Assembly: GCA_036493235.1 (NCBI GenBank)
Contig: DASXQC010000192.1
Location: forward strand, 332-64,331
DNA from: Reyranella sp.
Lineage (GTDB): Bacteria > Pseudomonadota > Alphaproteobacteria > Reyranellales > Reyranellaceae
Reading direction: 5' to 3'
Length of the DNA stretch: 64,000 bases
Shown here piece by piece: positions 67-28,183 of this stretch. The notes beneath the pieces were generated by a model. The model had not been told where the DNA came from, made no database searches, and saw nothing but the letters and a program-made list of their open reading frames with translations. Position 1 is the stretch's first letter; the number at the start of each line of letters is the position of its first letter. A program made the position numbers and the translations under genes.

Positions 67-1491
67 CTAGGGCCTTGCTCGGCGCGCTCGCAGGCCGGCG
101 AGGAAGTCGGAAAAGGCCTTCGCCTCCGGCACGAGATACTCCGGCTCGGCCCGCCGCGCTCTCGGTGCTCCGACCTCGAACGGATTGCCGAAGTACGAGT
201 TCGCATGCAGGTTGGCCAGGAACTCGATCGCGGCCGGGCGCGGCTCGCCATCGAGGGCCGGACGCGGTGCCTCCAGCATCTCGCGCAGGCGCCATTCCAG
301 CGGATGGCTGCGTGCGTGCGGCTTGTTGGTAAGCAGTGAGGAGAAGAAGATCGGCGACAGGCCGACACTCGACACGCCGAGCAGTGCCGCCTCGTAGGCC
401 ACCGTGCCGCTCACGGTCAGCACCAGGTCGGCGCCCTTCATCAGGCTGAAAATGTCCCGAAATGGATCGATCAAGCGCACATTGGGCAGCGCCTTGACCT
501 GCCGCAGCCAGCCGAGCGACCGGTCGCCGATCGCACCTTTGTGCTCCTTCACCCAGAGTCGGTGGGTCACCGGCAACAGCCGGCTGACCGTGTCGATCAG
601 GGCCAGCTGATTGCTGTTCAGCGAGCCGTAGACGTCGATCGAGGACTCTGGCTGGTGATGCAGCGGATAGAGCACATAGCGCTCATTCGGCGGCGACGTC
701 TCGAACGGGCTGAAATACCTGCTCATGATGGCGTTGACGAAACGCGTCGTGCGGTCGGCGATGCGGGCGCTCAACGGCCAGAGCGTGGCGTCGCCGCGAT
801 CCAGATGCTGCCGCGCCAGGCCAATGAACAATTCGTTCAGCCAGCGCAGGTGGAACGGCGTATAGCCGCTCTTGAACGCCTGCATGTAGGGCGGCTGGAC
901 CGGTCGGTGGAGCCACTCGTGGAGGAAATTCCGCGCCCACTCCACGTCCTTCCGGCCCGGCGCAACAACCTCGAACAGCGTCGTCATGACGGCATCGGCA
1001 AAGTAGAAGCGGTCGCCGGGCACGCGCGTCGAGGACGGCGTGAGCATCGGAATCCCGATATGGCCGCACACCAGCCAGGTGAGCAGCTCGAAACCCCAGG
1101 TACCCTCGCCGAACGCCACCTCGACCTTGCGCTGGCGCAGGAACGGCTCGACGTGACGCCGCGCCACAGCGAGGTAGGCGTAGCTGAACTGCGCCGGCGA
1201 GCGCCGCAGGTTGCGGCACATATGGATGACGTTGCCGATGGTCGCGGGCGCCTCGCGCTCGATGTCGGCCAGCTCGGCCGCAGCCTTCTCGATCGGCAGA
1301 TCCTGCCATTCAGCCTCGTGCTCGGCGAGGCACAGGATGTCGGCGCTCGGCCAGCCTTCATCGCGCAGCCAGTTGGCCCAGCGGCGGCTCGGTGCGAGCC
1401 AGACGATCTCTTCGCCTTCGCGCTGCAGCCGCCGTGCGATGTCGGAGTAGACGACCGTGAGATCCTTGTTGGAGATGAAGCAGATCGACAT
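67..1491 (-). CDS. KpsS-like capsule polysaccharide biosynthesis protein (candidate ulosonic-acid/pseudaminyl transferase)
   Basis: 474 aa; C-terminal YVLYPLHHQPESSID, VKEH and TVSGTVAYEAALLG motifs typical of the KpsS/Capsule_synth family; directly downstream of the flippase. Confidence 0.7.
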   Translation of the reverse strand: MSICFISNKDLTVVYSDIARRLQREGEEIVWLAPSRRWANWLRDEGWPSADILCLAEHEAEWQDLPIEKAAAELADIEREAPATIGNVIHMCRNLRRSPAQFSYAYLAVARRHVEPFLRQRKVEVAFGEGTWGFELLTWLVCGHIGIPMLTPSSTRVPGDRFYFADAVMTTLFEVVAPGRKDVEWARNFLHEWLHRPVQPPYMQAFKSGYTPFHLRWLNELFIGLARQHLDRGDATLWPLSARIADRTTRFVNAIMSRYFSPFETSPPNERYVLYPLHHQPESSIDVYGSLNSNQLALIDTVSRLLPVTHRLWVKEHKGAIGDRSLGWLRQVKALPNVRLIDPFRDIFSLMKGADLVLTVSGTVAYEAALLGVSSVGLSPIFFSSLLTNKPHARSHPLEWRLREMLEAPRPALDGEPRPAAIEFLANLHANSYFGNPFEVGAPRARRAEPEYLVPEAKAFSDFLAGLRARRARP

Positions 1492-1514
1492 TTACGTTCT
1501 GTTTTCTGACGGTC

Positions 1515-2798
1515 TCATGAAATGGCGGGCAGAAGCTCGATCAACCACGGGCTCGCAACCAGAGGCAGCACGAAATACGCTGACCGGAAGCTCACGCCCT
1601 TGCGGGCGAGTAATCGCATCTGAACCAGAAGCATCGCCAGCATCGCGATGGAATACAGCCAAATGACCGCCGGCAGGGTGGCCGGAATCCACCGGAACAG
1701 CCCCAGGCCCACGATCGCGCCGATCCCGACGATCGACAGGCACGCGATCGTCGCCTGTCGCGACAGCAGGTCACGCACCACGAACATCTCGAGGTTCGAG
1801 TTCAGTATCCAAAGCGTCGTCTGGATCGTGACGAGGGGGAAGATCCGGACGAATGCCGCCGCCGGAATTTCCGTCCAGGCCACGAGGAGATGGCCGGTGA
1901 AATGGCTGACCAGGGTCACCACGAACCCGAGGCCCGACAGCACAGCGACCCAGCGCGTGAAGATCCAGCCGATCCTCTCCAGGTTCATCCGATAGACAGA
2001 GCGAAACAATCCGACGCTAAGAATCTGACTGGCGAAGACCAGCACCAGAGCGATGCGCGCGCATAGGGAGAAGCACGCCACGTCGGTCAGGCCGAGCTCT
2101 TTCGCGATCGCCAGCCGCGCCGTGCCGAACAGCAGGATCTGCGACAGCCCGAAGAGCATCATGGGCGCCCCCAGCCGCACCACCGGATGGACGATCTCCT
2201 TGAACTGCGGCCACGGCATGCCCGACACGCGACGCAGGGCCAAGGCTGCCAGGGCCACGGCGACGGCCACCACCCACCAGGTGAGCAGCCCCACAGTCGC
2301 CATGCCCAGCAGCGTCAGCACGCCGACCAGGGCCACCACCACCATGATGCTCGAATTGTCGAGCCAGCCGGACAGGTGAATGTACCCCTTCATCCGGGCG
2401 TAGGCCGAGCCGGAGAACTGGAGGCCGAACAGCGCGATCAGGGCGATGCCGAGGGCGTATTCGACCGGCCAATGAAACATCAGGGCGACTGGCGCGGCCA
2501 CCACGGCAACGCCCGCCAGCCACAGGCAGAGGCCGAACAGCATCAGCTCGGCGCGGGGGTCCTTGTCCACCAGTTCGGTTCTCAGGGCTACCGAGGACGT
2601 GCCGAGGCCGAGCACCGTCGCGCCCATCAAGCCCAGAGTCAGCGCCAGCTCGATGCCACCGTAGGTTTGGGCATCGACCAGCCGCGGCAGGGCAATCGCC
2701 GCACAGAATGCGACCCCTTTGCCCAGCCCGAAAGACAGGGCGAAGGTGAAAGCGGTCCGCAGGAATTTCGCCGATGGAATGTTGACCAGTTTGCCCAC
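1515..2798 (-). CDS. wzx: Wzx-type polysaccharide flippase
   Basis: 427 aa, about 12 hydrophobic segments; N-terminal LPRLVDAQTYG and central RLGAPMML segments typical of MOP/Wzx flippases; glycan-locus context. Confidence 0.75.
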   Translation of the reverse strand: MGKLVNIPSAKFLRTAFTFALSFGLGKGVAFCAAIALPRLVDAQTYGGIELALTLGLMGATVLGLGTSSVALRTELVDKDPRAELMLFGLCLWLAGVAVVAAPVALMFHWPVEYALGIALIALFGLQFSGSAYARMKGYIHLSGWLDNSSIMVVVALVGVLTLLGMATVGLLTWWVVAVAVALAALALRRVSGMPWPQFKEIVHPVVRLGAPMMLFGLSQILLFGTARLAIAKELGLTDVACFSLCARIALVLVFASQILSVGLFRSVYRMNLERIGWIFTRWVAVLSGLGFVVTLVSHFTGHLLVAWTEIPAAAFVRIFPLVTIQTTLWILNSNLEMFVVRDLLSRQATIACLSIVGIGAIVGLGLFRWIPATLPAVIWLYSIAMLAMLLVQMRLLARKGVSFRSAYFVLPLVASPWLIELLPAIS

Positions 2799-4615: not shown

Positions 4616-5338
4616 GTGGCCAGCGAACGCCAGTACGAGGGCGGAGAGCTCGAACTGTTCGAGGGCGCCGTCAACTGGAAGGCTTATTGGACGGCCAAGC
4701 TCTCGCCTTTCATCACCGGCAACGTGCTCGAGGTCGGCGCCGGACGTGGAGCAAACCTCGCGGCATTCGGCCAAGCCCCGGGCCGGCAATGGACCCTGCT
4801 CGAACCCGATCCCGAACTGTGCGAGGCCATTCGCAACAAGATCACGTCTGCACAACTGCCGGCCGGCACCAGCGTGATGTGCGGCATGCTGGGCGACCTG
4901 CCGGCCGACGCGACCTTCGATTCGATCCTCTACATCGACGTGCTGGAACACATCGAGGATGACCGGACAGAAGTGGCGGCGGCTGCGGAGCATCTGGCGC
5001 CGGGCGGCCATCTCGTCGTGCTCTGCCCTGCCCATCAGGCAGTCTATTCGCCGTTCGACGCCGCGATCGGCCACTACCGGCGCTACGACCGGCCGGGCCT
5101 CCTCGCGCTCACGCCATCGTCGCTCGTGCCGCTGACGGCGTTCTATCTTGATTCGCTGGGACTCGTGCTGTCGGCGGCGAACCGCTACGTGGCGAAGAAG
5201 AGCGCCCCAACGCCGGCGACGATCAAGATATGGGACTCGAGCGTCGTCCCCCTGTCCCGGGTCTTCGATCCGCTGACCGGCTATCGCCTCGGCCGCTCGG
5301 TCATCGCGATCTGGAAGAAGGCCGCAGCGTCCGGCTGA
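4616..5338 (+). CDS. Class I SAM-dependent methyltransferase
   Basis: VLEVGAGRG, FDSILYIDVLEHIEDD, LAPGG and GHYRRY motifs; starts immediately after the GT2 stop. Confidence 0.85.
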   Translation: MASERQYEGGELELFEGAVNWKAYWTAKLSPFITGNVLEVGAGRGANLAAFGQAPGRQWTLLEPDPELCEAIRNKITSAQLPAGTSVMCGMLGDLPADATFDSILYIDVLEHIEDDRTEVAAAAEHLAPGGHLVVLCPAHQAVYSPFDAAIGHYRRYDRPGLLALTPSSLVPLTAFYLDSLGLVLSAANRYVAKKSAPTPATIKIWDSSVVPLSRVFDPLTGYRLGRSVIAIWKKAAASG

Positions 5339-6110
5339 GAATGAAGTCGAACGGCTCGGCACCGAAGGCCGACAGCCAACGTGCGATCGTGACCCTGCGG
5401 TTGAGCTCCACCCGTGGCCGGTTTCCTGCGAAGCCAGCGAGAATGGCCGGCGCGATCGCCTGGGGCGACGGCGGCGCCTTGGCCGCGCTTAACATCGGCG
5501 CGTCCCCGACCGATGGCGGGTTGGCGTTCATCGCAGTATCGACCGGGCCGGGCGACACAACCCGCACGCGGACGGCAGAGCCGGCAAGCTCCAGGCGCAG
5601 GGCCTCGGCGAGCCGCTCGATGCCGGCCTTGCTGGCGGCATAGGCCCACTGGAACGGTACCGCGCGATAAGCCGTGCCGGAGGCGATGAAGCCGATCGTG
5701 CCGCCGCCTGCTTGCATGCGCGGAACGAGCGCCCGGGCGAGCGCGAAACCCGCCATCAGGTTCACGTCCATCAGCTCCTGTGCCTTCTCGACCGGATAGT
5801 CCGAGACCCGCGCGATCAACACCGATCCTGCGGCATGGATGGCTAGGTTGATCGGTGCGCCCAGGCGCTGCTCGGCCTCGCCGACCATCCCCTCGATAGC
5901 GGACAGGTTGCGAAGGTCGAATGGCAGCGCCTCGGCGCGCACCGCGCCGGCGGCGAGGCACATCTTGCCCGTCTCCTCGAGAGCGTCGCCGCGGCGGCCG
6001 ACCAGCGCCAGGCGGGCCTTCCGCTTCGCCAGCTCGACGGCGAGCGCGCGACCGATGCCGCTGGAGGCGCCGGTCACCAGCGCACAGGCTTCGGCGAATG
6101 GTTGGGTCAT
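5301..6110 (-). CDS. SDR family NAD(P)-dependent oxidoreductase (positional partner of the DprE1-like oxidase)
   Basis: TGASSGIG and YAASK motifs; ATGA overlap with the upstream FAD oxidase. Confidence 0.85.
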   Translation of the reverse strand: MTQPFAEACALVTGASSGIGRALAVELAKRKARLALVGRRGDALEETGKMCLAAGAVRAEALPFDLRNLSAIEGMVGEAEQRLGAPINLAIHAAGSVLIARVSDYPVEKAQELMDVNLMAGFALARALVPRMQAGGGTIGFIASGTAYRAVPFQWAYAASKAGIERLAEALRLELAGSAVRVRVVSPGPVDTAMNANPPSVGDAPMLSAAKAPPSPQAIAPAILAGFAGNRPRVELNRRVTIARWLSAFGAEPFDFILSRTLRPSSRSR

Positions 6111-11577: not shown

Positions 11578-11745
11578 CCCTGCCCTGCCCCATGGGGTTG
11601 TTACGGCAACTTTCGCCCCCGCGGAACGAGTAGCATAGAGCCCTGGATGACCGACAGTGTCTTCACGAGCGGGTCCGCGACACATCCCCGCGGAGGACGC
11701 CGGATCACCATTTATATTCAACAACATCAATGACATACTGTGCCA

Positions 11746-12468
11746 ATGGCGCAGGTGATCGTGGATGTCCGAAGCTTCTACGAAGCGTCCTACGGTTCGC
11801 AAGGATCCGGCGCCCAGCGACACTACCCGAACGAGGAAATGTGCCGCTTCATGGGCCGGCACTTCTTCCGCATTCCGGCCGACCAGCGCCGGACGGTCCG
11901 GATCCTCGAAGTGGGATGCGGCTCGGGTGCGAATCTCTGGATGATCGGCCGCGAAGGCTTCTCCGCATACGGGCTGGACCTTTCGTCAGAGGCGATCGAG
12001 TTGTGCCGCCGCATGCTGGAGGCGTACGGCACGACCGCTGACCTGAAGGTCGGGAGCATGACCGACACGGGCTATCCTGCGGGCTTCTTCGACGCCGTGG
12101 TCGACGTGTTCTCGTCCTATTGCCTGGATAACCACGGACATTCGGCCTTCCTCGACGAGGTGGCCCGCATCCTGAAGCCGGGCGGACGGTTCTTCTCCTA
12201 CCTGCCGAGCCAGGAGTCGGATGCCTTCAAGAACCCGGGGCCGTCGACGCGCGTCGACGACAGCACCCTGGATGGAATCCAGCGTCCCGATGCGCCCTAC
12301 TTCGGCAATTTCTATTCTTTCAGGTTCACGACGCCCGATGCCTACAAGGCCGATCTCGGCCGCCGGCACTTCACCATCGACGCAATGGAACGGGTGAGCC
12401 GTACCTACCGGCAGACGGCTGAATATTTCGAGTTCGTCGTCGTCGACGCAGTCCACCGCGCTCCATGA
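11746..12468 (+). CDS. Class I SAM-dependent methyltransferase
   Basis: ILEVGCGSGAN, GLDLS, FDAVVD and ILKPGG motifs; N-terminal YPNEE. Confidence 0.85.
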   Translation: MAQVIVDVRSFYEASYGSQGSGAQRHYPNEEMCRFMGRHFFRIPADQRRTVRILEVGCGSGANLWMIGREGFSAYGLDLSSEAIELCRRMLEAYGTTADLKVGSMTDTGYPAGFFDAVVDVFSSYCLDNHGHSAFLDEVARILKPGGRFFSYLPSQESDAFKNPGPSTRVDDSTLDGIQRPDAPYFGNFYSFRFTTPDAYKADLGRRHFTIDAMERVSRTYRQTAEYFEFVVVDAVHRAP

Positions 12469-13481
12469 AAGTCGTCGAGCAGACCGATCCGGAGTTCGAC
12501 GAAGTCTGGGAAGCGCTGTTGCGCGACCATGACAACCCGGCGGCACATATCTCGCAATCGCAGCTCGACTACCGACGCCACTACATGGCCGAGCAGATGG
12601 ACGGTCGCTTTTGCGCGGTCGTCACCGAAGGTGGCCGGCCGGTCTGCGGCAGCAGCTTCGAGATCCTGAAAGGCCAGAACGGCGAGCGGCTACTGGATGC
12701 CGTCGAGACACCGAGCGCGCTGATCGTCGCCCACGGCGCGAAACCCAGCCTGTACAAGGGCGCAGAGGCGCTGATGCGCGAACGCATCGAGCGGCTCGCG
12801 CGCGAAACGCAGGCGAACCGCCTGGTCTTCCGCGACCAGCTCGTTCATGGCGGGCTGTCCGCGCTGTCGTTGTGGGCGCTGGGCAAAGGCGCGTCACATG
12901 CCGTGCAGCTAATGCAGGTCATCGACCTGACGCGCGGTGACGCCTGGCTGTGGAGCGACCTGACCAAGAGCTGCCGATGGGGCGTCAACTGGGGCCGCAA
13001 GAACATGACGGTCAAGGTCGACCGCGAGCCGCAATCCGTCGAGGAACTGCGACGCCTTCACCTCGCCGCCGCGGGGTTCGCGACCCGATCGGCCGAGACC
13101 TGGGCCATCCAGGAACGCCAGGTGCGGGACGGCGAGGCCTTCGTGGTCACGGCCGCGCTGAACGGTGCGGTCGTCTCCGCCGCGCTTTTCATCTGCTCGA
13201 AAAGCGATTGCCTCTACGGCGTCAGCGCGTCCGACCGGTCGCTGTTCGAGAAGCCGATCGGCCATGTCGTGCTGTGGGAAGCAGTTCAGCATGCCCGCGA
13301 GCGCGGCTGCCTGCGCTTCACGACCGGCCTCCAGGTGTGGCGGCACACTCTGCCACGGCTCGCTGCGGTCACGCCCAAAGAAGCCAATATTGCGAAGTTC
13401 AAGAGAAGCTTCGGCGGCAAGACGGTGCCCGAAATGGTGATCGATCTCGCGATGCCCCTTCTCTCGCCCCGTCGCTGCTGA
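12465..13481 (+). CDS. GNAT/FemAB-like acyltransferase
   Basis: IDLT..LWSDLTKSCRWGV and YGVSASDR..GHVVLWEAV..A..GC..F..KFKRSFGG pattern of FemAB/Acetyltransf_6 proteins; ATGA overlap with the methyltransferase. Confidence 0.7.
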   Translation: MKVVEQTDPEFDEVWEALLRDHDNPAAHISQSQLDYRRHYMAEQMDGRFCAVVTEGGRPVCGSSFEILKGQNGERLLDAVETPSALIVAHGAKPSLYKGAEALMRERIERLARETQANRLVFRDQLVHGGLSALSLWALGKGASHAVQLMQVIDLTRGDAWLWSDLTKSCRWGVNWGRKNMTVKVDREPQSVEELRRLHLAAAGFATRSAETWAIQERQVRDGEAFVVTAALNGAVVSAALFICSKSDCLYGVSASDRSLFEKPIGHVVLWEAVQHARERGCLRFTTGLQVWRHTLPRLAAVTPKEANIAKFKRSFGGKTVPEMVIDLAMPLLSPRRC

Positions 13482-13700: not shown

Positions 13701-14717
13701 GTGCTTGCCTTGAGTGCTGAGGCTTTAAGGGATTCCGTCGTCCTGGTGACCGGCGGCACGGGGTCGTTCGGCCGCCGTTTCGTGAAATACGCTTTGGAAT
13801 GCGGAGTACGGCGCATCGTCGTGTTCTCGCGTGACGAGCTGAAGCAGTTCGAACTCGCGCAGAAGATCACTGATCCGCGCGTGCGCTGGTTCCTGGGCGA
13901 CGTGCGTGACGAGGCGCGCCTGCGACGCGCCCTGCACGGCGTCGACTATATCGTGCATGCTGCGGCGCTGAAGCAGGTACCCGCCGCCGAATACAATCCG
14001 ATGGAGTGCATCAAGACCAACGTGCTTGGTGCCGAGAACCTGATCAACGCCAGTATCGACGCAAAAGTTAAGCGTGTGATCGCGCTCTCGACCGACAAGG
14101 CGGTCAATCCGATCAACCTCTACGGCGCCACCAAGCTCTGCGCCGACAAGCTGTTCGTCGCCGCGAACCATCTGAGCGGCGCCGGCGGCACTCGCTTCGC
14201 CGCCGTGCGCTACGGCAATGTCGTAGGCTCGCGCGGTTCCGTCATTCCCTTCTTCATGGCGCATCGCAAACATGGTTGGTTGCCGATCACCGACGAGCGC
14301 ATGACCCGCTTCTGGATCACCCTCGACCAGGGTGTGAAGTTCGTGGCCTCGTGTCTCGACGCGATGGATGGCGGCGAGATCTTCGTTCCGAAGGTCGCCA
14401 CCATGCGGCTCGTAGACCTGGCGGGCGCCATAGCCCCTGAGGCCGAGCTGCGCAACGTCGGCATCCGCCCCGGCGAGAAACTTCACGAGATCCTGGTGCC
14501 GAAAGACGAGGCACGCAACACGCTCGATCACGGCAGCTTGTACGTAATCCGTCCGGCGATGCAGCAATGGACCAGTTCGACGCCTCTCACCGTGGCTGGC
14601 GTGTCGGGTGAGCAGGTCGACGACGAATTCGAATATGCCAGCGACTCCGCTGGCCAGCACCTCGACGCCGCGGCTCTGCAGGCGATGATCGCCCAGAGCA
14701 CTTCCGACTACGACTGA
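13701..14717 (+). CDS. pseB: UDP-N-acetylglucosamine 4,6-dehydratase (inverting)
   Basis: TGGTGSFG, FSRDELKQ, HAAALKQVPAAEYNP, STDKAVNPINLYGATK, RYGNVVGSRGSV and MTRFWITL motifs. Confidence 0.95.
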   Translation: MLALSAEALRDSVVLVTGGTGSFGRRFVKYALECGVRRIVVFSRDELKQFELAQKITDPRVRWFLGDVRDEARLRRALHGVDYIVHAAALKQVPAAEYNPMECIKTNVLGAENLINASIDAKVKRVIALSTDKAVNPINLYGATKLCADKLFVAANHLSGAGGTRFAAVRYGNVVGSRGSVIPFFMAHRKHGWLPITDERMTRFWITLDQGVKFVASCLDAMDGGEIFVPKVATMRLVDLAGAIAPEAELRNVGIRPGEKLHEILVPKDEARNTLDHGSLYVIRPAMQQWTSSTPLTVAGVSGEQVDDEFEYASDSAGQHLDAAALQAMIAQSTSDYD

Positions 14718-14720
14718 TCG

Positions 14721-15908
14721 ATGGCCGAACGCTTCCTCTCCTACGGCCGCCATCTCGTCGACGATGACGATGTCGCCGCCGTGGTGGAGGTGTTGCGCGG
14801 CGAGATGCTCACCACCGGCCCGGCGGTTGAGCGCTTCGAGCGCACCGTCGCCGAACGAGTCGGTGCCCGGCACGCCGTTGCCGTCAATTCCGGGACGTCG
14901 GCCCTACACATTGCGTGCCTTGCCGCCCGCATCGGCGCCGGCTCGGCGACCGTTACCGCGCCGATCACCTTCGTCGCCACCGCCAATTGCGTGCGGTTGT
15001 GCGGAGGCACGGTCCATCTCGCCGACATCGACCGCCATAGCCTGTCGCTGTCGCCGGCCACGCTGGAGCGGACGCTTGCGGCACATCCTTCGGTGAAGGC
15101 GGTAATGCCGGTACATTTCGGCGGGTTGGCCTCTCATGCCGCCGAGCTCCGCAAGATCGCCGGTAACCGGCTACTGATAGAGGACGCCGCCCATTCGTTC
15201 GGTGGCACTTACGACGACGGCCAGCCGGTCGGCAGTGGCGCCTATGCCGACATGTCGGTCTTCTCCTTCCACCCGGTGAAGCTGGTCACCACGGGCGAAG
15301 GCGGCACGGTCACCACCAATGACGATGAGCTCGCGCGCCTGCTGCGGCTGTTCCGCAGCCACGGCATCGAGCGCGCCCCCGCGCGCCTGGTCGCGCTGGC
15401 CGACGAGGATACCGATAGCGCCCCACCCTGGTACTACGAGCAGCAGGAGCTCGGCCTCAACTACCGCATGACCGATCTGCAGGCGGCGCTCGGCGTGTCG
15501 CAGATCGGCAAACTCGACCGCTACCTCGCACGCCGGCGCGAGATCGCTGCTTACTACGACGAGCAATGGCGCGGCCTGCCCCACATCGTCATCCCGCAAT
15601 CGGCACCCGGCGAACGCACGCGCTCGGCACTGCATCTCTACGTCGTCCGTATCGACTATGGCGGCCTCGGCATGACGCGACAGAAAGTCATGGAGGAGCT
15701 GCGCAAGAGCGGCGTCGGCAGCCAGGTCCACTACATCCCGGTCTACCGCCAGCCCTACCATCGCGACGGCGTCGACCGCGCGGCATTCCCCGAGAGCGAG
15801 TCCTACTACAGCGAATGCCTGTCGATTCCGCTCCATCCCGGCCTCACCGAGGCCGAGGTCGAGCGCGTGGTCGGCGCGGTCCGCACCCTCTGCCTGCGCA
15901 ACGGCTGA
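14721..15908 (+). CDS. pseC: UDP-4-amino-4,6-dideoxy-N-acetyl-beta-L-altrosamine transaminase
   Basis: DegT-family motifs EDAAHS, FSFHPVKLVTTGEGG, PWYYEQQELGLNYRMTDLQAALG and QVHYIPV; follows pseB. Confidence 0.93.
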   Translation: MAERFLSYGRHLVDDDDVAAVVEVLRGEMLTTGPAVERFERTVAERVGARHAVAVNSGTSALHIACLAARIGAGSATVTAPITFVATANCVRLCGGTVHLADIDRHSLSLSPATLERTLAAHPSVKAVMPVHFGGLASHAAELRKIAGNRLLIEDAAHSFGGTYDDGQPVGSGAYADMSVFSFHPVKLVTTGEGGTVTTNDDELARLLRLFRSHGIERAPARLVALADEDTDSAPPWYYEQQELGLNYRMTDLQAALGVSQIGKLDRYLARRREIAAYYDEQWRGLPHIVIPQSAPGERTRSALHLYVVRIDYGGLGMTRQKVMEELRKSGVGSQVHYIPVYRQPYHRDGVDRAAFPESESYYSECLSIPLHPGLTEAEVERVVGAVRTLCLRNG

Positions 15909-15917
15909 GGCACTCGT

Positions 15918-16967
15918 ATGCTGCCCGTCCTCGAGATCGCAGGCCGCAAGATCGGCACCGGGCACCCGCCCTACGTCGTATGCGAGCTGTCGGGCAATCA
16001 CAACGGCAACCTCGATCGCGCCCTGCAGCTGATCGATGCCGCGGCGGCGACCGGCGCCGACGCGATCAAGATACAGACCTACACGCCGGATACGCTCACG
16101 ATCGATTCCGACCGCCCCGAGTTCAAGCTCAAGGGCGGGCTATGGGACAACAAGACCCTGTACGAGCTCTACGGCGAGGCGCAGACGCCCTACGAATGGC
16201 ATCCTGCCCTGTTCGCGCGGGCGAAGGCGCATGGCGTCACGCTGTTCTCAACGCCATTCGACGAGACGGCAATCGATCTGCTCGCAAGCCTCGACGCGCC
16301 GGCCTACAAGATCGCCTCGTTCGAGGCGATCGACCTGTCGTTGATCGAGCGGGTCGCGCGGCAGCGCAAGCCGATGATCATCTCGACCGGCATGGCTAAC
16401 CTCGCCGAGATCCAGGACGCGGTGACGGCCGCGCGCGATGCCGGTGCGCCGGGCATCGCTCTGCTCCACTGCACGAGCGCCTATCCCGCGCCGGTGACCG
16501 ACGCCAATGTCCGCACCATCCCGCATCTCGCCTCGGCGTTCGGCGTGGTCGGCGGGCTATCGGATCACACACCAGGCACCGCCGTCGCGGTCGCGGCCAT
16601 CGCCCTGGGCGCCTGCATCATCGAGAAGCACTTTACCCTGTCGCGTACCGATGGCGGACCTGATGCCGCCTTCTCGCTCGAGCCCGAGGAGTTCAAGCGC
16701 CTGGTCGACGACTGCCGCGCTGCCTGGTCGGCGCTGGGCGACATCACCTACGACCTGCAGGGCAGCGAGCGCGGCAACAAGGCGTTCCGCCGCTCGATCT
16801 ACGCTGTCGCGACGATCGAGGCCGGCGAGGCCTTCTCGACCCAGAACGTCCGCTCGATAAGGCCGGGCTTCGGCCTGCCGCCAAAGGCCCTGCCTGGCCT
16901 GATCGGCCGGCGCGCCCGCCGCCGCATCGAGCGCGGCGAGCCGATCTTGTCGTCTCTGGTGGAATGA
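15918..16967 (+). CDS. pseI: Pseudaminic acid synthase
   Basis: ELSGNHNG, KIQTYTPDTLT, YKIASFE, CTSAYP, GLSDHT and IEKHFTL motifs plus a C-terminal SAF/AFP-like domain (RRSIY..RPGFGL). Confidence 0.93.
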   Translation: MLPVLEIAGRKIGTGHPPYVVCELSGNHNGNLDRALQLIDAAAATGADAIKIQTYTPDTLTIDSDRPEFKLKGGLWDNKTLYELYGEAQTPYEWHPALFARAKAHGVTLFSTPFDETAIDLLASLDAPAYKIASFEAIDLSLIERVARQRKPMIISTGMANLAEIQDAVTAARDAGAPGIALLHCTSAYPAPVTDANVRTIPHLASAFGVVGGLSDHTPGTAVAVAAIALGACIIEKHFTLSRTDGGPDAAFSLEPEEFKRLVDDCRAAWSALGDITYDLQGSERGNKAFRRSIYAVATIEAGEAFSTQNVRSIRPGFGLPPKALPGLIGRRARRRIERGEPILSSLVE

Positions 16968-16991: not shown

Positions 16992-18281
16992 ATGTCCGTT
17001 CGTTACGCCCGATCCGAGGAGCTTCTGGCGCGGGCCCGCAAGACGATCCCGCTGGGCGCGCAGACCTTCTCCAAGTCGGTCACGCAATATCCGCTGGGCG
17101 TGTCCCCCTACTTCGCCGAACGCGCCAAGGGCAGCCGGCTGTGGGATGCCGACGGCAACGAGTACATCGACTTCATCAATGCGCTCGCCTCGGTGACGCT
17201 GGGTTACTGCGATCCCGACGTCGACGGCGCAGTCCGCGCCCAGCTCGAGAAGGGCACGATCTACTCGCTCTCCCATGTGCTCGAGGCCGAGGTCGCGGAG
17301 ATGATCTGCGAGCTGGTGCCGTCGGCCGAGATGGTGCGCTTCGGCAAGAACGGCTCGGATGCCACCTCGGGTGCGATCCGCATCGCCCGCGCCTTCACCG
17401 GCCGCGACCACGTCCTGTCGCTCGGCTATCATGGTTGGCAGGACTGGTACGTCGGCGCGACGCTGCGCAACAAAGGCGTGCCGGCCTCAACCTCTGCGCT
17501 GACCCATGCCCTGCCCTACAACGATCTCCCTGCGCTCGAAGCCAAGCTGGCCGAGCTCGACGGCAAGGTCGCCGCCATCATCATGGAGCCGATGACGTTC
17601 GGCACCACCAAGCCGGGCTACCTCGAGGGCGTACGCGCCGCGGCGACCAAGACCGGCGCCATCCTGGTGTTCGACGAGACCATCACCGGCTTCCGCGTCG
17701 CCATGGGCGGCGCGCAGGAACATTTCGGCGTCACGCCCGACCTCACCACCCTCGGCAAAGGCGTCGCCAACGGCTATCCGCTGTCGGTGGTGTGCGGCCG
17801 GCGCGACGTCATGATGGAAATGGAGGAGGTGTTCTTCTCCTTCACCATGGGCGGCGAGACCCTGTCGCTGGCGGCGGCGCTGGCCACCATGAAGAAGCTG
17901 AAGACCCAGCCGATTTTGAAGTCGATCGCCACGGTCGGCGAGCGGATGTCCGCGGGCATCCGCGAGCGCATCGAGCGACACAAGGTCGGCGGCTTCATCT
18001 CCTTCTCAGGCCACCCGGCCTGGAACTACCTCGCGATCGGCGACGCGCCGGGCACGACCTCCTGGGAACTCAAGACGCTGTTCGAGCAGGAAGTGTTCGA
18101 GCGCGGGATCCTGACGCTCGGCGCACACAATATGAGCTACGCCCATACCAACGAGGACGTCGACCACCTGCTGCAAGTCTACGATGAGGTCTTCGCATTC
18201 CTCGCCAAGGCCGTGGCCAACGGCGCCGTCCGCCAATATTTGCGGTGCGAACCGCTTGTCCCGCTGTTCCGCGTGCGATAA
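16992..18281 (+). CDS. Class III PLP aminotransferase (GSA-aminomutase-like)
   Basis: GAQTFSKS, WDADGNEYID, RFGKNGSDAT, GYHGW, FDETITGFR and PDLTTLGKG (PLP lysine). Confidence 0.9.
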   Translation: MSVRYARSEELLARARKTIPLGAQTFSKSVTQYPLGVSPYFAERAKGSRLWDADGNEYIDFINALASVTLGYCDPDVDGAVRAQLEKGTIYSLSHVLEAEVAEMICELVPSAEMVRFGKNGSDATSGAIRIARAFTGRDHVLSLGYHGWQDWYVGATLRNKGVPASTSALTHALPYNDLPALEAKLAELDGKVAAIIMEPMTFGTTKPGYLEGVRAAATKTGAILVFDETITGFRVAMGGAQEHFGVTPDLTTLGKGVANGYPLSVVCGRRDVMMEMEEVFFSFTMGGETLSLAAALATMKKLKTQPILKSIATVGERMSAGIRERIERHKVGGFISFSGHPAWNYLAIGDAPGTTSWELKTLFEQEVFERGILTLGAHNMSYAHTNEDVDHLLQVYDEVFAFLAKAVANGAVRQYLRCEPLVPLFRVR

Positions 18282-18323
18282 CGCCCAGTCCGCGAACCAT
18301 CCGGAGCCCAGCAGCCCAACCCC

Positions 18324-19967
18324 ATGAGTACCGCTTCCAACGCCCATCGCATCGGCATCGGTACCGTTCAATTCGGCACGATCTACGGCATCTCCAACCT
18401 GCTCGGACAGGTGCCCCGGCCAACCGTGGCGGACATCCTGCATACCGCCCGCGAGGCCGGAATCCGCCTACTGGATACCGCAGCGACGTACGGCGAATCA
18501 GAGGAAGTGCTCGGCCAACTGATGCCGAAGGACTCGGACTTTCAGATCACAACCAAGACGACAACTAGCGCGATCGGCATCACGGGCGTGGTCGACCGCG
18601 CCCGCGAATCGCATCGCATCCTTGGCGGCCGGCCGATCCATGGCCTGCTGGTACATTCGGTTTCCGATCTGCGCTCGAACAATGGGCCTGAGCTGTGGGC
18701 AGCGCTGCAGGGCCTGCGCGACGAAGGGCTGTTCTCGCGCCTCGGCATCTCGGCCTACGGCTCCGACGATCCCGTCGATCTCGCGCAACGCTACCGGCCG
18801 GACATCATGCAGCTGCCGGTGAGCGTGCTCGATCAGCGGCTGGTGCAGAGCGGCGTTCTTCGCCGGTTGAAGGATCTGGGCGTCGAGGTCCATGCCCGCT
18901 CGCTGTTCCTGCAGGGCGCGATCTTCCTCAAGCCGTCGGCGCTGCCGCTCGGCCTAGCCCACGTGCGGCCCCAGCTCGAGGCGTTCCATGCGCACCTGAT
19001 GGAGGTCGGCATCTCGCCGGTCGAGGCCGGCATTGGCTACCCGCTGTCGATCCCGGAGATCGACCGGGCCGTGGTCGGCATCAGCTCGGTCCAGGAAATG
19101 CAGCAAATCCTGGCGGCCGCAGCGCGGGACACCGCCTCGATGCCGTGGGATTCGCTCACCGTCGACGACGAGGTGCTGCTCGATCCGCGCCTGTGGGTCT
19201 CCAACCAAGAATTCCGCGCCAGCAGCGCGGCCGCCAAGACCGGCCGACCGACGGTCATCGCCATCGTGCAGGCGCGCATGGGCTCTAGCCGCCTACCGGG
19301 CAAGGTGCTGAAGCCGATCATGGGCCGGCCGATGCTGGGCCGCCATCTCGACCGGCTGCGGCGCTGCAAGATGATCGACCGCCTGATCGTCGCGACCAGC
19401 GTCGAGAAAAGCGACGACGTGATCGCTGCCTTCTGTGCCAGCGAGGACATCGCCTGTTACCGCGGGCCGCTGGACGACCCACTAGCGCGGTACGAGGGCG
19501 CCGCGCGCGAGAACGACCCGGTCGACCATATCGTGCGTCTGACCGGCGACTGCCCACTGGCCGATCCCGAGGTGATCGATGCAGTGATCAAGACCCACCT
19601 CTCCGGCAACTACGACTATTCGGCCAACACCATCGAGCCGCGCTATCCCAACGGTCTCGACGCCGAGATCATGACGCGCGCAGCGCTGCGCCTGATGGCG
19701 GCCGAGGCGTCAAGCGCCTACGAGCACGAGCACGTCACGCCATTCCTCTACACGCAGCCGACCCGCTTCAAGCTCGGTAGCGTCGAGAACAAGGTCAATC
19801 AGAGCCACATGCGCTGGACCGTCGACACGGAGGATGACTTCCGGATGGTCGAAGCGGTCTACCGCGAGCTGTTGCCGACCAACGAGCAGTTCGCCTCGGC
19901 CGACATCGTCGCGCTACTGGAGCGGCGGCCCGACATCGCCGCCATCAACCAGCGCCCCCAAAGCTAG
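18324..19967 (+). CDS. Fusion of an aldo/keto reductase and an SpsF-type ulosonate cytidylyltransferase
   Basis: N-terminal IGTVQFG, DTAATYG, TK and LVH (AKR tetrad) and ARSLFLQG; C-terminal IVQARMGSSRLPGKVL, RLTGDCPL, EHVT and RWTVDT; continuous ORF of 547 aa. Confidence 0.88.
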   Translation: MSTASNAHRIGIGTVQFGTIYGISNLLGQVPRPTVADILHTAREAGIRLLDTAATYGESEEVLGQLMPKDSDFQITTKTTTSAIGITGVVDRARESHRILGGRPIHGLLVHSVSDLRSNNGPELWAALQGLRDEGLFSRLGISAYGSDDPVDLAQRYRPDIMQLPVSVLDQRLVQSGVLRRLKDLGVEVHARSLFLQGAIFLKPSALPLGLAHVRPQLEAFHAHLMEVGISPVEAGIGYPLSIPEIDRAVVGISSVQEMQQILAAAARDTASMPWDSLTVDDEVLLDPRLWVSNQEFRASSAAAKTGRPTVIAIVQARMGSSRLPGKVLKPIMGRPMLGRHLDRLRRCKMIDRLIVATSVEKSDDVIAAFCASEDIACYRGPLDDPLARYEGAARENDPVDHIVRLTGDCPLADPEVIDAVIKTHLSGNYDYSANTIEPRYPNGLDAEIMTRAALRLMAAEASSAYEHEHVTPFLYTQPTRFKLGSVENKVNQSHMRWTVDTEDDFRMVEAVYRELLPTNEQFASADIVALLERRPDIAAINQRPQS

Positions 19968-25634: not shown

Positions 25635-26198
25635 ATGCTGAAGCGCGCCTTCGATCTCGTGGTCATCCTGGGCGCCGCCGTGCCGATCCTTGCGGTGTGC
25701 CTGATCGTGGCCGCCCTGGTGAAGGCCACCTCGCCCGGACCAGTCCTCTACTGGTCCGACCGGGTGGGCATGCGCGGCCGCATCTTCCGCATGCCCAAGT
25801 TCCGCACCATGAGGACCGACACGCCTGTAGTCGCAGCGCACCTACTGCCAAATCCGGCACAATGGATCACGCCAATCGGCGGCTTCCTGCGCTCCTCCAG
25901 TCTGGACGAACTGCCACAGCTCTTGAGCGTCCTGCTCGGCGATATGAGCCTCGTCGGCCCCCGTCCGGCTCTCTACAATCAAGCTGACTTGGTGACGGCG
26001 CGCAAGTCTTGCGGGGTCGATGCGCTGCCGCCGGGCATCACGGGATGGGCCCAAATCAACGGCCGGGACGCGCTGCCAATTCCTCAGAAAGTAGCCTTCG
26101 ACTACGAGTACCTGCAACGGCAGTCCTTCGGCTTCGACCTCAAGATATTGTTGCTGACTGTGGTGACTGTCATGTTGCGGAAAGGGGTTAGCCACTAG
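25635..26198 (+). CDS. Initiating phosphoglycosyltransferase (Bac_transf, small PglC-like)
   Basis: KRAFD, KFRTM, LRSSSLDELPQL, GDMSLVGPRP and PGITGWAQINGR motifs. Confidence 0.93.
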   Translation: MLKRAFDLVVILGAAVPILAVCLIVAALVKATSPGPVLYWSDRVGMRGRIFRMPKFRTMRTDTPVVAAHLLPNPAQWITPIGGFLRSSSLDELPQLLSVLLGDMSLVGPRPALYNQADLVTARKSCGVDALPPGITGWAQINGRDALPIPQKVAFDYEYLQRQSFGFDLKILLLTVVTVMLRKGVSH

Positions 26199-26203
26199 TC
26201 GAC

Positions 26204-28183
26204 ATGGTTGGGTTGGCTGCCTGGCGGGTTGGGGACATGGGTAGGTATGGAAGTATCCGAAGCAAGCAGATCATTGCGTTCGTCCATGACGTCGCGATGG
26301 CGGTGATAGCCGTCTTCGTCGCCGTGATGTTCCGCTTCGGAAGCTTCGACGCGCTCGAGGAACGCGGCCTGCTCAGCGGCGCGATCGTGCCGTTCACCGC
26401 TGGCGCAACAATTGCTCTGATCCTGCTGCGAACCTATCGGACGAGCTGGCGGCACGTATCGACAGCCGACCTCGTCACCATCGTCCAGTCGGCGACCCTA
26501 GCGGTGCTGATTTACCTGCCGCTGTCCTTCGTCACAACCCGCCTCAGCGAGATCCCACGCACTTTCGTGCTGATCGCCTGGGTGCTGTTCATCGTGCTGA
26601 TGTCGGGCACCCGCGTCGCTTACCGCCTCAGCCACGAGCGCGGCGTACTCTTCATGAACCGCTCGCGCCGGCCTGGCCAGATGCCGGTGCTGGTGATTGG
26701 CGGCGGCACAAACGCCGAGATATTCCTGCGCAGCCTCAACGACAAGGCAGAGTACTATGCCGTCGGCGTGCTCGATGACAACTTCTCCGGCACCCTGCTC
26801 CGTGGCGTTCCCGTGCTGGGCCGCATTGACGAGGCCGAGAAGGCCGTCGAAAGCTTCAGCGAGGAGAGCCGGCCGCGCAAGCTGGTGGTAGTCGACCGAA
26901 CGCTCGCTCCGCAAGTCATCGAGAGGCTGGTCGCAGTAGTCGCTCGGCTTGGCATCACGATCGCCCGCGTGCCCGACCTCACCCAGCTTCGGCCCGGCAC
27001 CGAGGATAGAGCCGAGCTGCAGCCGATTTCGGTCGAGGACCTGCTGGGCCGCTCCCAGATCGTGCTCGATCCGTCGCCCGTGAAGAACCTGATCGCCGGC
27101 AAGCGCGTGCTGGTCACCGGCGCAGGCGGCTCGATCGGTTCGGAGATCGTCCGCCAGGTGTGCGGCTTCCGCCCAGCCGCGGTCTGCCTGGTCGACGCCA
27201 CCGAGCTCAACCTTTACACGATCGACGGCGAGGTCGCGCGCGAATGGCCACCGTTCGAGCGCGTGGCGCGGGTGGTCGATGTCCGCCATCGCAGCGGCAT
27301 CGCCGCCTGCATGGCCGCGTTCAGGCCCGACATCGTGTTCCATGCAGCCGCGCTCAAGCACGTGCCGATCGTCGAGGCCAATCCGGCCGAAGGCATCTGG
27401 ACCAACGCGATCGGCTCGCGAAACGTCGCCGACGCCGCTGTGGCCGCCAAGTGCGGGACGATGGTACTGATCTCGACCGACAAGGCGGTCAACCCGACCA
27501 ACGTGATGGGCGCCAGCAAGCGCTGCGCCGAGAGCTACGTGCAGGCGCTCGCCCTCTCCCAGGCCCGCCTGCCCGGTGCCACGCGCTTCGTTGCCGTGCG
27601 CTTCGGCAATGTGCTGGGCTCGACCGGCTCGGTGGTGCCACTGTTCGAGCGCCAGCTCAAGGCGGGCGGTCCGCTCACCGTCACGCACCCGGACATCGAG
27701 CGTTTCTTCATGACTATCCGCGAGGCGGTGCAGCTCGTCCTGCAGGCCTCCGCCCTCGGCACCCAGGAGCTCGCGGTGCAGGGCCGGGTGTTCGTGCTCG
27801 ATATGGGCCAGCCGGTGAAGATCGTCGATCTCGCTCGCCAGATGATCCGCCTCGCTGGCCTGCGCCCCGAGATTGACGTCGCCATCGAATTCACCGGGCT
27901 ACGCCCCGGCGAGAAGCTTTACGAAGAACTATTCCACTACGGCGAGCAGATCGAGGCGACCACCATCCCCCGGATCAATGTCGCCTCGCCGCGCACCGCC
28001 AGCTTGCGCGAGTTGACCGAGGCCCTGCAACGGCTGCAAGTGCTCTGCGAGGCTGGCAACGCGGTCGAGGCGATCGCAATCGTGAGGTCGCTGGTGCCAG
28101 AGTACACATCCTCCGATGCGGCTGTCGGGCCGGCCGTGGTTCTGGAACCCGCCAGGATCTATTCCAGGATTCGACTGCAATAA
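26204..28183 (+). CDS. Membrane-bound UDP-GlcNAc 4,6-dehydratase (CapD/WbpM/PglF family)
   Basis: Four N-terminal TMs, EDLLGR, TGAGGSIGSEI, HAAALKHVP, STDKAVNPTNVMGASK, RFGNVLGS and GLRPGEKLYEEL; alternative start at 26237. Confidence 0.93.
   Translation: MVGLAAWRVGDMGRYGSIRSKQIIAFVHDVAMAVIAVFVAVMFRFGSFDALEERGLLSGAIVPFTAGATIALILLRTYRTSWRHVSTADLVTIVQSATLAVLIYLPLSFVTTRLSEIPRTFVLIAWVLFIVLMSGTRVAYRLSHERGVLFMNRSRRPGQMPVLVIGGGTNAEIFLRSLNDKAEYYAVGVLDDNFSGTLLRGVPVLGRIDEAEKAVESFSEESRPRKLVVVDRTLAPQVIERLVAVVARLGITIARVPDLTQLRPGTEDRAELQPISVEDLLGRSQIVLDPSPVKNLIAGKRVLVTGAGGSIGSEIVRQVCGFRPAAVCLVDATELNLYTIDGEVAREWPPFERVARVVDVRHRSGIAACMAAFRPDIVFHAAALKHVPIVEANPAEGIWTNAIGSRNVADAAVAAKCGTMVLISTDKAVNPTNVMGASKRCAESYVQALALSQARLPGATRFVAVRFGNVLGSTGSVVPLFERQLKAGGPLTVTHPDIERFFMTIREAVQLVLQASALGTQELAVQGRVFVLDMGQPVKIVDLARQMIRLAGLRPEIDVAIEFTGLRPGEKLYEELFHYGEQIEATTIPRINVASPRTASLRELTEALQRLQVLCEAGNAVEAIAIVRSLVPEYTSSDAAVGPAVVLEPARIYSRIRLQ

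Follow-up and report, generated by a model that had tools for sequence, protein, structure and literature searches.

The DNA considered here, termed the window, is a stretch of 64,000 nucleotides (nt) from a Reyranella sp. assembly (GCA_036493235.1, contig DASXQC010000192.1, positions 332 to 64,331 of the forward strand). It harbors an operon for pseudaminic acid (Pse), in which the Pse synthase gene pseI is followed by a class-III, pyridoxal phosphate (PLP)-dependent aminotransferase resembling glutamate-1-semialdehyde (GSA) aminomutase (GSAM) and by a single open reading frame (ORF) that fuses an aldo-keto reductase (AKR) to an SpsF-type cytidylyltransferase (CT) (Table 1). This succession, together with the domain assignments, the coordinates and the catalytic tetrad of the AKR, had been given correctly in a preliminary description of the window, and the order PseI, aminotransferase, AKR-CT is shared by a fully syntenic Reyranella metagenome-assembled genome (MAG). 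The genes downstream of pseI form a tight run on the plus strand with intergenic gaps of 24, 42, and 33 nt, and the members of the canonical pathway to cytidine monophosphate (CMP)-activated Pse that are present in the window, PseB, PseC, and PseI, all score above the curated cut-offs of their NCBIfam models. As discussed below, AKR, CT, and aminotransferase recur as a trio in Pse operons and may serve to tailor and activate the sugar.

Table 1. Features of the Pse operon and its surroundings; positions are counted from the first nucleotide of the window.
Feature	Position	Strand	Best matches
PseB, inverting uridine diphosphate N-acetylglucosamine (UDP-GlcNAc) 4,6-dehydratase	13701-14717	+	TIGR03589, 482 bits (cut-off 408)
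PseC, DegT-type UDP-4-keto sugar aminotransferase	14721-15908	+	TIGR03588, 469 bits (cut-off 424)
PseI, Pse synthase, NeuB and SAF domains	15918-16967	+	TIGR03586, 503 bits (cut-off 340)
GSAM-like class-III PLP aminotransferase, 429 aa	16992-18281	+	PF00202 (Aminotran_3), 1.8e-48
AKR-CT fusion, one ORF of 547 aa, unbroken frame	18324-19967	+	
AKR domain, residues 8-292	18345-19199	+	PF00248, 2.3e-25; NF011432, 232 bits
SpsF-type CT domain, residues 312-547	19257-19964	+	PF02348, 1.5e-32; PDB 6oew, 127 bits
FemAB-like acyl/aminoacyl-transferase candidate	12465-13481	+	TIGR04421-like, 94 bits, under cut-off
Methyltransferase	11740-12468	+	
PglF/CapD-like dehydratase, 659 aa	26204-28183		

The Fusion Protein and Its Cytidylyltransferase Domain

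Within the fusion, the Aldo_ket_red match extends over residues 9-267, the KidO-like model NF011432 covers residues 8-292 with 232 bits against a cut-off of 244, and CTP_transf_3 has been matched at residues 312-490 (1.5e-32). The AKR tetrad D51/Y56/K78/H111 is intact; an alignment of 19 sequences shows no variation at Y56, K78, and H111 and at least 90% conservation at D51. The nucleotide-binding residues of the CT domain (R318, S321, R323, and K327) are invariant as well. An assembly artefact, which had been named earlier as a possible origin of the fusion, has been ruled out, since independent soil-metagenome contigs bridge the junction with zero indels (X3 spanning 18492-19949, X4 18000-19871, and X7 18810-19328) and homologues from separate assemblies, including Reyranella and Rhizomicrobium, have the same two-domain build at 60-98% identity and lengths of 533-556 aa. 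Redox chemistry and CMP activation are hence physically coupled in one ORF, as had been supposed. More than 100 clusters of the protein database combine AKR and CT domains in one protein, and both AKR-CT and CT-AKR orders occur among the homologues. These two orders are indicative of two independent fusions, which can be regarded as strong evidence that AKR and CT would also be coupled functionally. A complex prediction for the fusion and the aminotransferase has given a score of 0.00, which counts neither for nor against an interaction, and a protein search of a phage collection has returned a weak match to the CT domain in one marine virus and nothing else.

With the PseF model TIGR03584 (cut-off 206), the sole match in the 78%-complete MAG is the CT domain of the fusion itself (30-31 bits), and in the syntenic 6.5-Mb Reyranella genome it is again the CT domain that gives the sole match (28 bits). 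Because neither genome holds a PseF, the CT domain is very probably a CMP-Pse-type synthetase standing in for it. The earlier view that the locus carries genes extra to the canonical Pse pathway stands for two genes, but the CT domain is probably no extra, being the sole PseF substitute in the genome. In Bacillus subtilis, SpsF is needed for the transfer of legionaminic acid and not for its synthesis, which gives genetic support to SpsF-type CTs as activators of nonulosonates (PMC7439481). FlmC of Caulobacter, a cytidylyltransferase without similarity to PseF, completes a six-enzyme Pse pathway in Escherichia coli (PMC7591256), and for a Pse cluster of Vibrio, a survey from 2020 has suggested a bifunctional AKR-SpsF protein as the substitute for NeuA (PMC7371886).

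The only PseH of the MAG (131-134 bits) resides on a separate 3-kb contig (L002, contig C195 of G000, 1064-2287, minus strand), part of which has a matching counterpart in the syntenic Reyranella genome immediately upstream of the Pse cluster. It constitutes the C-terminal part of a 407-aa ORF, the first ~200 residues of which match no family, and an ORF for a PhyH-like dioxygenase overlaps upstream.

The Class-III Aminotransferase

The aminotransferase falls under every NCBIfam cut-off, its best model being the GSAM-like NF004856 (376 bits, cut-off 486), and hemL (TIGR00713) has been matched with 256 bits against a cut-off of 527. The PLP lysine K256 and the aspartate D228 are invariant among 30 sequences. 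Upon alignment to the GSAM of Synechococcus, Arg32 of the SPVRAF motif pairs with K28 in QTFSKSV, the family-specific motif being QTxSKRP, and the gating loop is about nine residues shorter than that of GSAM. Because of the hemL score under cut-off, the replaced SPVRAF motif, and the shortened loop, the enzyme is, as judged from its sequence, not a GSA mutase or true HemL. Its top matches in the PDB are GSAM (up to 224 bits), followed by the aminopentol aminotransferase FumI, an unnamed aminotransferase (4zm3/4zm4), and the C-6' aminoglycoside aminotransferases 7lld and 7lm0; the nearest solved relatives other than GSAM thus transaminate non-amino-acid carbonyls.

A Widespread AKR, CT, and Aminotransferase Cassette

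A single-sequence scan with the fusion protein alone has retrieved no relatives, but relatives were found in an alignment-based scan. A profile-guided survey with one genome per species has provided 80 loci, to which two others were added, all scored with the window proteins. A homologue of the aminotransferase has been detected in 52 of the 63 loci that hold both AKR and CT. In 39 of these 52 it lies no more than 160 nt from CT or AKR, usually directly 3' of CT, and in eight it is fused to CT. The association of AKR-CT with pse genes and the class-III enzyme, for which the preliminary description had suggested a survey, has thereby been confirmed, a full Pse set being the usual context. Clustering of the neighboring ORFs has revealed the recurring order PseB, PseC, AKR, CT, aminotransferase, PseG, PseH (or a formyltransferase), and PseI, with representative PseG and PseH genes scoring 323 and 144 bits, respectively. 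Carriers comprise bacteria and archaea, among them Aeromonas caviae ATCC 15468/CECT 838 with an intact cassette (L021), Cupriavidus, Massilia, Halobacillus, Cohnella, Gemmatimonas, Syntrophus, Omnitrophota, Planctomycetes, Pelagibacteraceae, and Methanobrevibacter, and altogether the trio has been found in Pse operons of more than 10 bacterial and archaeal phyla. The window aminotransferase is 50-66% identical to the cassette aminotransferases of other phyla. With a Bacteroidota aminotransferase as seed, proteins of 65-78% identity have been recovered from several phyla among the best 120 homologues, about one third of which are CT-aminotransferase fusions (~675 aa) from Bacteroidota and other phyla. 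Even a GNAT-CT-aminotransferase triple fusion exists, with a stand-alone AKR within the same Pse locus. The arrangement in the window is one form of a very widespread cassette and no peculiarity of the locus.

Several loci deviate from this scheme. In Methanolobus (L009), Eubacterium callanderi (L010), Ruthenibacterium (L016), and a Bacillota MAG (L064), AKR-CT is followed by a DegT-type aminotransferase that replaces the class-III enzyme, and an unnamed family of ~300 aa occupies the usual slot of PseG beside PseI and PseH. In loci of the Rhizomicrobium type (L005:5445-11599, L027, L034, L043, and L046), a CT-AKR fusion is encoded beside a short NeuB-like synthase (285 aa, no SAF domain), an ATP-grasp enzyme, a short-chain dehydrogenase/reductase (SDR), a thiamine-diphosphate enzyme, and methyltransferases, mostly with no PseB/PseC nearby; these loci may belong to a separate ulosonic-acid pathway. 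A plasmid of Methylomagnum ishizawai (NZ_AP019784.1; L087:9247-15692) combines an SpsF-like CT, a split transketolase, and a class-III aminotransferase of 44% identity with an SDR, a short NeuB-family synthase, and a HAD-IIIA phosphatase, a set that resembles a pathway for making an aminated ulosonic acid de novo from a precursor other than UDP-GlcNAc. As the aminotransferase family or CT-AKR also occurs with short NeuB-like synthases and thiamine-dependent enzymes, the cassette enzymes are not restricted to Pse, which weakens the interpretation given below.

Two further leads have been dropped. Sinorhizobium fredii NGR234, whose K-antigen Pse pathway employs the PseF-like RkpN, encodes a 38%-identical aminotransferase homologue on pNGR234b that is not part of a Pse cluster and is uninformative on the cassette. 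The idea that the aminotransferase replaces PseC has found no support, as two of five apparently PseC-less loci belong to genomes with a PseC above cut-off; among the other three genomes, two show DegT-type matches under the cut-off (347 and 233 bits), and one, a MAG, shows none.

A Possible Route to 8-Amino-8-Deoxy-Pseudaminic Acids

CT is the hub of the fusions described above. Because both AKR and aminotransferase are found fused to it, they would be expected to act at the stage of activation. We tentatively regard the trio as a conserved module for tailoring and activation of Pse, in which the AKR oxidizes the C8 hydroxyl group and the aminotransferase converts the resulting ketone to a sugar of the 8-amino-8-deoxy-Pse type. 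In this scheme, PseB, PseC, an N-acyltransferase, PseG, and PseI would first provide a 5,7-diacylamido Pse, which the SpsF-type CT domain would convert to the CMP-sugar in place of PseF. With NAD(P)+, the AKR domain would then oxidize a secondary alcohol of the (CMP-)sugar, most likely the C8 hydroxyl group, yielding a methyl ketone. Transamination by the GSAM-like enzyme would lead to CMP-5,7-diacylamido-8-amino-3,5,7,8,9-pentadeoxy-non-2-ulosonate, that is 8-amino-8-deoxy-Pse or its 8-epimer, and the new amine might finally be acylated by the FemAB-like protein or a glyceroyl system of FkbH and an acyl carrier protein (ACP). The direction of the AKR reaction, the amination, its placement at C8 rather than C4, and the choice between free and CMP-linked sugar as the substrate are what we infer here. 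An extra-aminated or epimerized nonulosonate, as envisaged at the outset, nevertheless remains the most coherent product, with a precedent in the EpaA/EpaB pair of Acinetobacter baumannii (PMC12053666).

The assignment of an oxidative role to the AKR has been derived from its changing partners. In a few Pse loci an SDR takes the place of the aminotransferase (L067, with the order AKR-SDR-CT, and L065), and a quick tree places the AKRs that have an SDR as partner at scattered positions among those that go with an aminotransferase. Since an aminotransferase cannot oxidize an alcohol, the AKR should be the enzyme that makes the ketone, provided that it has one role across the family. The second enzyme would then set the outcome, an SDR giving rise to an epimer and an aminotransferase to an amine. 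C8 is favored because the Ela and Epa enzymes have been shown to act there. An 8-ketone would moreover be a methyl ketone, and methyl ketones are typical substrates of class-III omega-transaminases, which again favors this position. A 4-ketone would, by chemical reasoning, invite the elimination of CMP, and C8 is therefore preferred over C4.

A sugar of the expected constitution has been described. In Tenacibaculum (Flexibacter) maritimum, the O-antigen includes a 5,7-diacylamido-8-amino-3,5,7,8,9-pentadeoxy-manno-nonulosonic acid, tentatively assigned to the L series (PMC3210612), and on the strength of this tentative assignment it would be an 8-amino sugar of the Pse type. The trio could thus be the missing route to the 5,7,8-triamino nonulosonic acids (8-amino-8-deoxy-pseudaminic acids), a proposal that we consider plausible but somewhat short of probable.

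Several observations weigh against this interpretation. The T. maritimum sugar, the one chemical precedent, is without a tie to the trio genes: the literature searched has yielded neither an assignment of genes to it nor a further report of a triamino or 8-amino nonulosonate, papers on T. maritimum genomics have offered no relevant annotation, and no protein named as Tenacibaculum is among the best 120 homologues of the Bacteroidota aminotransferase. For carriers of the aminotransferase-bearing form, no biochemical or glycan-structure data have been found. AKRs usually operate as reductases and not as oxidases, and the study of EpaA/EpaB is silent on which of the two enzymes oxidizes (PMC12053666). 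No PseG has been detected in the 78%-complete MAG, but the syntenic Reyranella genome encodes one 6.5 kb upstream of the cluster. Loci with the aminotransferase contain on average 0.71 GNAT genes as compared to 0.91 in those without, so that a second GNAT as a regular companion of the aminotransferase has been discarded. Given this lack of enrichment, the new amine would often stay free or receive another kind of acylation. Finally, stand-alone AKRs are encoded beside PseC/PseB with no CT or class-III aminotransferase within reach in eight loci (L023, L024, L026, L029, L030, L058, L060, and L073), a setting in keeping with a hexose-stage function. These alphaproteobacterial AKRs are 46-49% identical to the AKR domain of the window, and their genes are mostly convergent with PseC-PseB and co-directional in L058 and L073.

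Neighboring Genes and Candidate Acyltransferases

On the 3' side of the fusion, the window encodes a GT4 glycosyltransferase, an XrtA-type polysaccharide deacetylase, FkbH, and, at 25635-28183, a PglC-like initiating transferase and the PglF/CapD-like dehydratase. No second DegT-type aminotransferase has been found among the window ORFs that were scanned, which lie between 4.5 and 29.4 kb. The FemAB-like protein upstream of pseB is a possible N-acyltransferase for a sugar amine, and together with the FkbH/ACP system it is a candidate for the acylation of the proposed 8-amine. FemAB-family proteins, likewise TIGR04421-like and under the cut-off, recur in cassette loci (L004:3510-5111, L007:16362-17327, L052:15541-16629, and L053:4982-5950), and a sugar amine may be their substrate for acylation or aminoacylation; the protein of the syntenic Reyranella locus (533 aa) consists of a FemAB-like part with a GNAT fused to its C-terminal side.

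Alternative Explanations

Among the alternatives, a purely redox-based tailoring survives best, although we consider it rather unlikely. The fusion would then act like EpaA, epimerizing Pse or otherwise reducing or oxidizing it before activation, and the aminotransferase would serve an amino-acyl side chain or the 4-keto sugar of the CapD/PglF-like dehydratase. The combination of CT and AKR is indeed the architecture of EpaA, the PglF-like dehydratase and PglC-like transferase of the window lack a second DegT-type aminotransferase among the scanned ORFs, and genes for acyl tailoring such as FkbH and the FemAB-like protein are abundant at the locus. The linkage of the aminotransferase is, however, not confined to such surroundings: it accompanies CT and AKR across phyla in the proportion given above, is repeatedly fused to CT, and does so independently of PglF-like proteins or FkbH, the latter being present in just one other locus. 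In addition, no SDR partner adjoins the fusion of the window.

Still less likely appears an action of AKR and aminotransferase before the condensation step, on UDP-4-keto or free 6-deoxy-hexosamine intermediates, with altered stereochemistry or amination of the precursor, from which a different isomer or analogue would arise in place of an 8-amino derivative. Such a role is suggested by the eight alphaproteobacterial loci with AKR beside PseC/PseB and without CT, by a few cassette loci without PseC inside 10 kb, and by the M. ishizawai plasmid, in which the aminotransferase family is paired with a transketolase, an SDR, and a short NeuB-like synthase. Against it stands the fusion of both enzymes to CT, the last-acting enzyme of the pathway. 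Most loci, furthermore, do contain PseC, or the genome encodes it at another site where the locus seemingly lacks it, and the only keto position of the known intermediates is already filled by PseC. The least probable alternative is an ordinary product, plain Pse5Ac7Ac or an N-acyl variant, with CT replacing PseF and with AKR and aminotransferase leaving the sugar unaffected (e.g., by serving KidO-like regulation or cofactor recycling), for which the proximity of the AKR domain to the KidO regulator model and the sufficiency of six enzymes including FlmC for Pse glycosylation in Caulobacter (PMC7591256) could be adduced, but which is at odds with the conservation across phyla of the AKR tetrad and of the PLP lysine and aspartate, and with the repeated fusions and the ~65-78% identity of the aminotransferase among distant taxa, which argue for a conserved catalysis.

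Implications

Flagella, capsules, and O-antigens are decorated with nonulosonic acids, which influence immune recognition, the attachment of phages, and serotyping. To our knowledge, tailoring at C8 of these sugars is known only as epimerization, namely from the Ela, Aci, and Epa systems. All parts of the trio belong to known families, and the AKR-CT fusion already has a published precedent and an annotation note; for the aminotransferase-bearing form, no assigned function has been found in the literature. If oxidation and amination at C8 do take place, a transaminating variant would furnish the sugar with a new position that carries a positive charge or can be acylated further, and genes would become available for the orphan 8-amino nonulosonate of T. 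maritimum, a pathogen of fish. It would likewise explain a cassette that is found in very many genomes and whose members are called 'glutamate-1-semialdehyde aminomutase', 'aldo/keto reductase', and 'spore coat protein SpsF' by annotation pipelines. Since the trio occurs in Pse operons of so many phyla, triamino sugars would be common and overlooked mimics of sialic acid on cell surfaces. A free 8-amine would differ from Pse5Ac7Ac by 1 Da, and its residue mass would equal that of the known acetamidino form, so that it could have been misassigned in mass spectrometry.

Comparison With Known Systems

As the source of best sequence and PDB matches, HemL shares the fold and the PLP lysine with the window aminotransferase. 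It differs in that genes of the window type are always located in sugar operons and encode proteins with a replaced Arg32 motif and a shortened loop. KdnB, a metal-dependent alcohol dehydrogenase, and KdnA convert 3-deoxy-D-manno-octulosonic acid (Kdo) to 8-amino-8-deoxy-Kdo in Shewanella, and the preliminary description had invoked this pair as a model with KdnA taken for a class-III enzyme. The idea of oxidation followed by transamination at the terminal part of an ulosonic acid stands, but the family had been wrongly assigned: KdnA is DegT-type, its structure (PDB 5k8b) groups with PseC (3.6e-32), and it is not among the best 60 of 157 PDB matches of the window aminotransferase. The substrate of the Kdn enzymes is the primary alcohol of an eight-carbon sugar and the oxidoreductase considered here is an AKR, so that neither family matches.

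SpsF of B. subtilis and FlmC of Caulobacter crescentus resemble the CT domain as non-PseF cytidylyltransferases of nonulosonate pathways, a CTP_transf_3 protein replacing NeuA/PseF. In contrast to the CT domain, both occur as separate proteins, unaccompanied by an AKR or aminotransferase, and FlmC is likened to it by function. ElaA, ElaB, and ElaC from the KL49 locus of A. baumannii epimerize CMP-Leg5,7Ac2 at C8 through an 8-keto intermediate (PMC13656337). Common to both systems would be a cytidylyltransferase with two enzymes directed to C8 of a CMP-nonulosonate, the 8-keto intermediate being that of Ela. The Ela enzymes differ by a Gfo/Idh/MocA oxidase, an SDR as the second enzyme, and legionaminic acid as the substrate, with no aminotransferase and no fusion.

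By analogy, EpaA and EpaB appear to be the closest characterized system. In prophages of A. baumannii, EpaA (GenPept SBS22546.1), a fusion of CTP_transf_3 and Aldo_ket_red, and the SDR EpaB convert Pse5Ac7Ac to 8-epi-Pse5Ac7Ac, as determined by nuclear magnetic resonance (PMC12053666). The Epa genes are prophage-borne, whereas the gene of the window is located inside the Pse operon of a soil alphaproteobacterium, and the order of domains is CT-AKR in EpaA but AKR-CT in the window. The partner of EpaA is an SDR, the place of which is taken in the window by the class-III aminotransferase. No SDR adjoins the fusion, the neighbors of which are the aminotransferase and the GT4 glycosyltransferase; the closest SDR gene, at 5301-6110 on the minus strand, is part of a different operon. 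Compared by domain description, both systems combine CTP_transf_3 and AKR in one polypeptide, and EpaA acts on Pse jointly with an enzyme from an adjacent gene, as the fusion of the window would.

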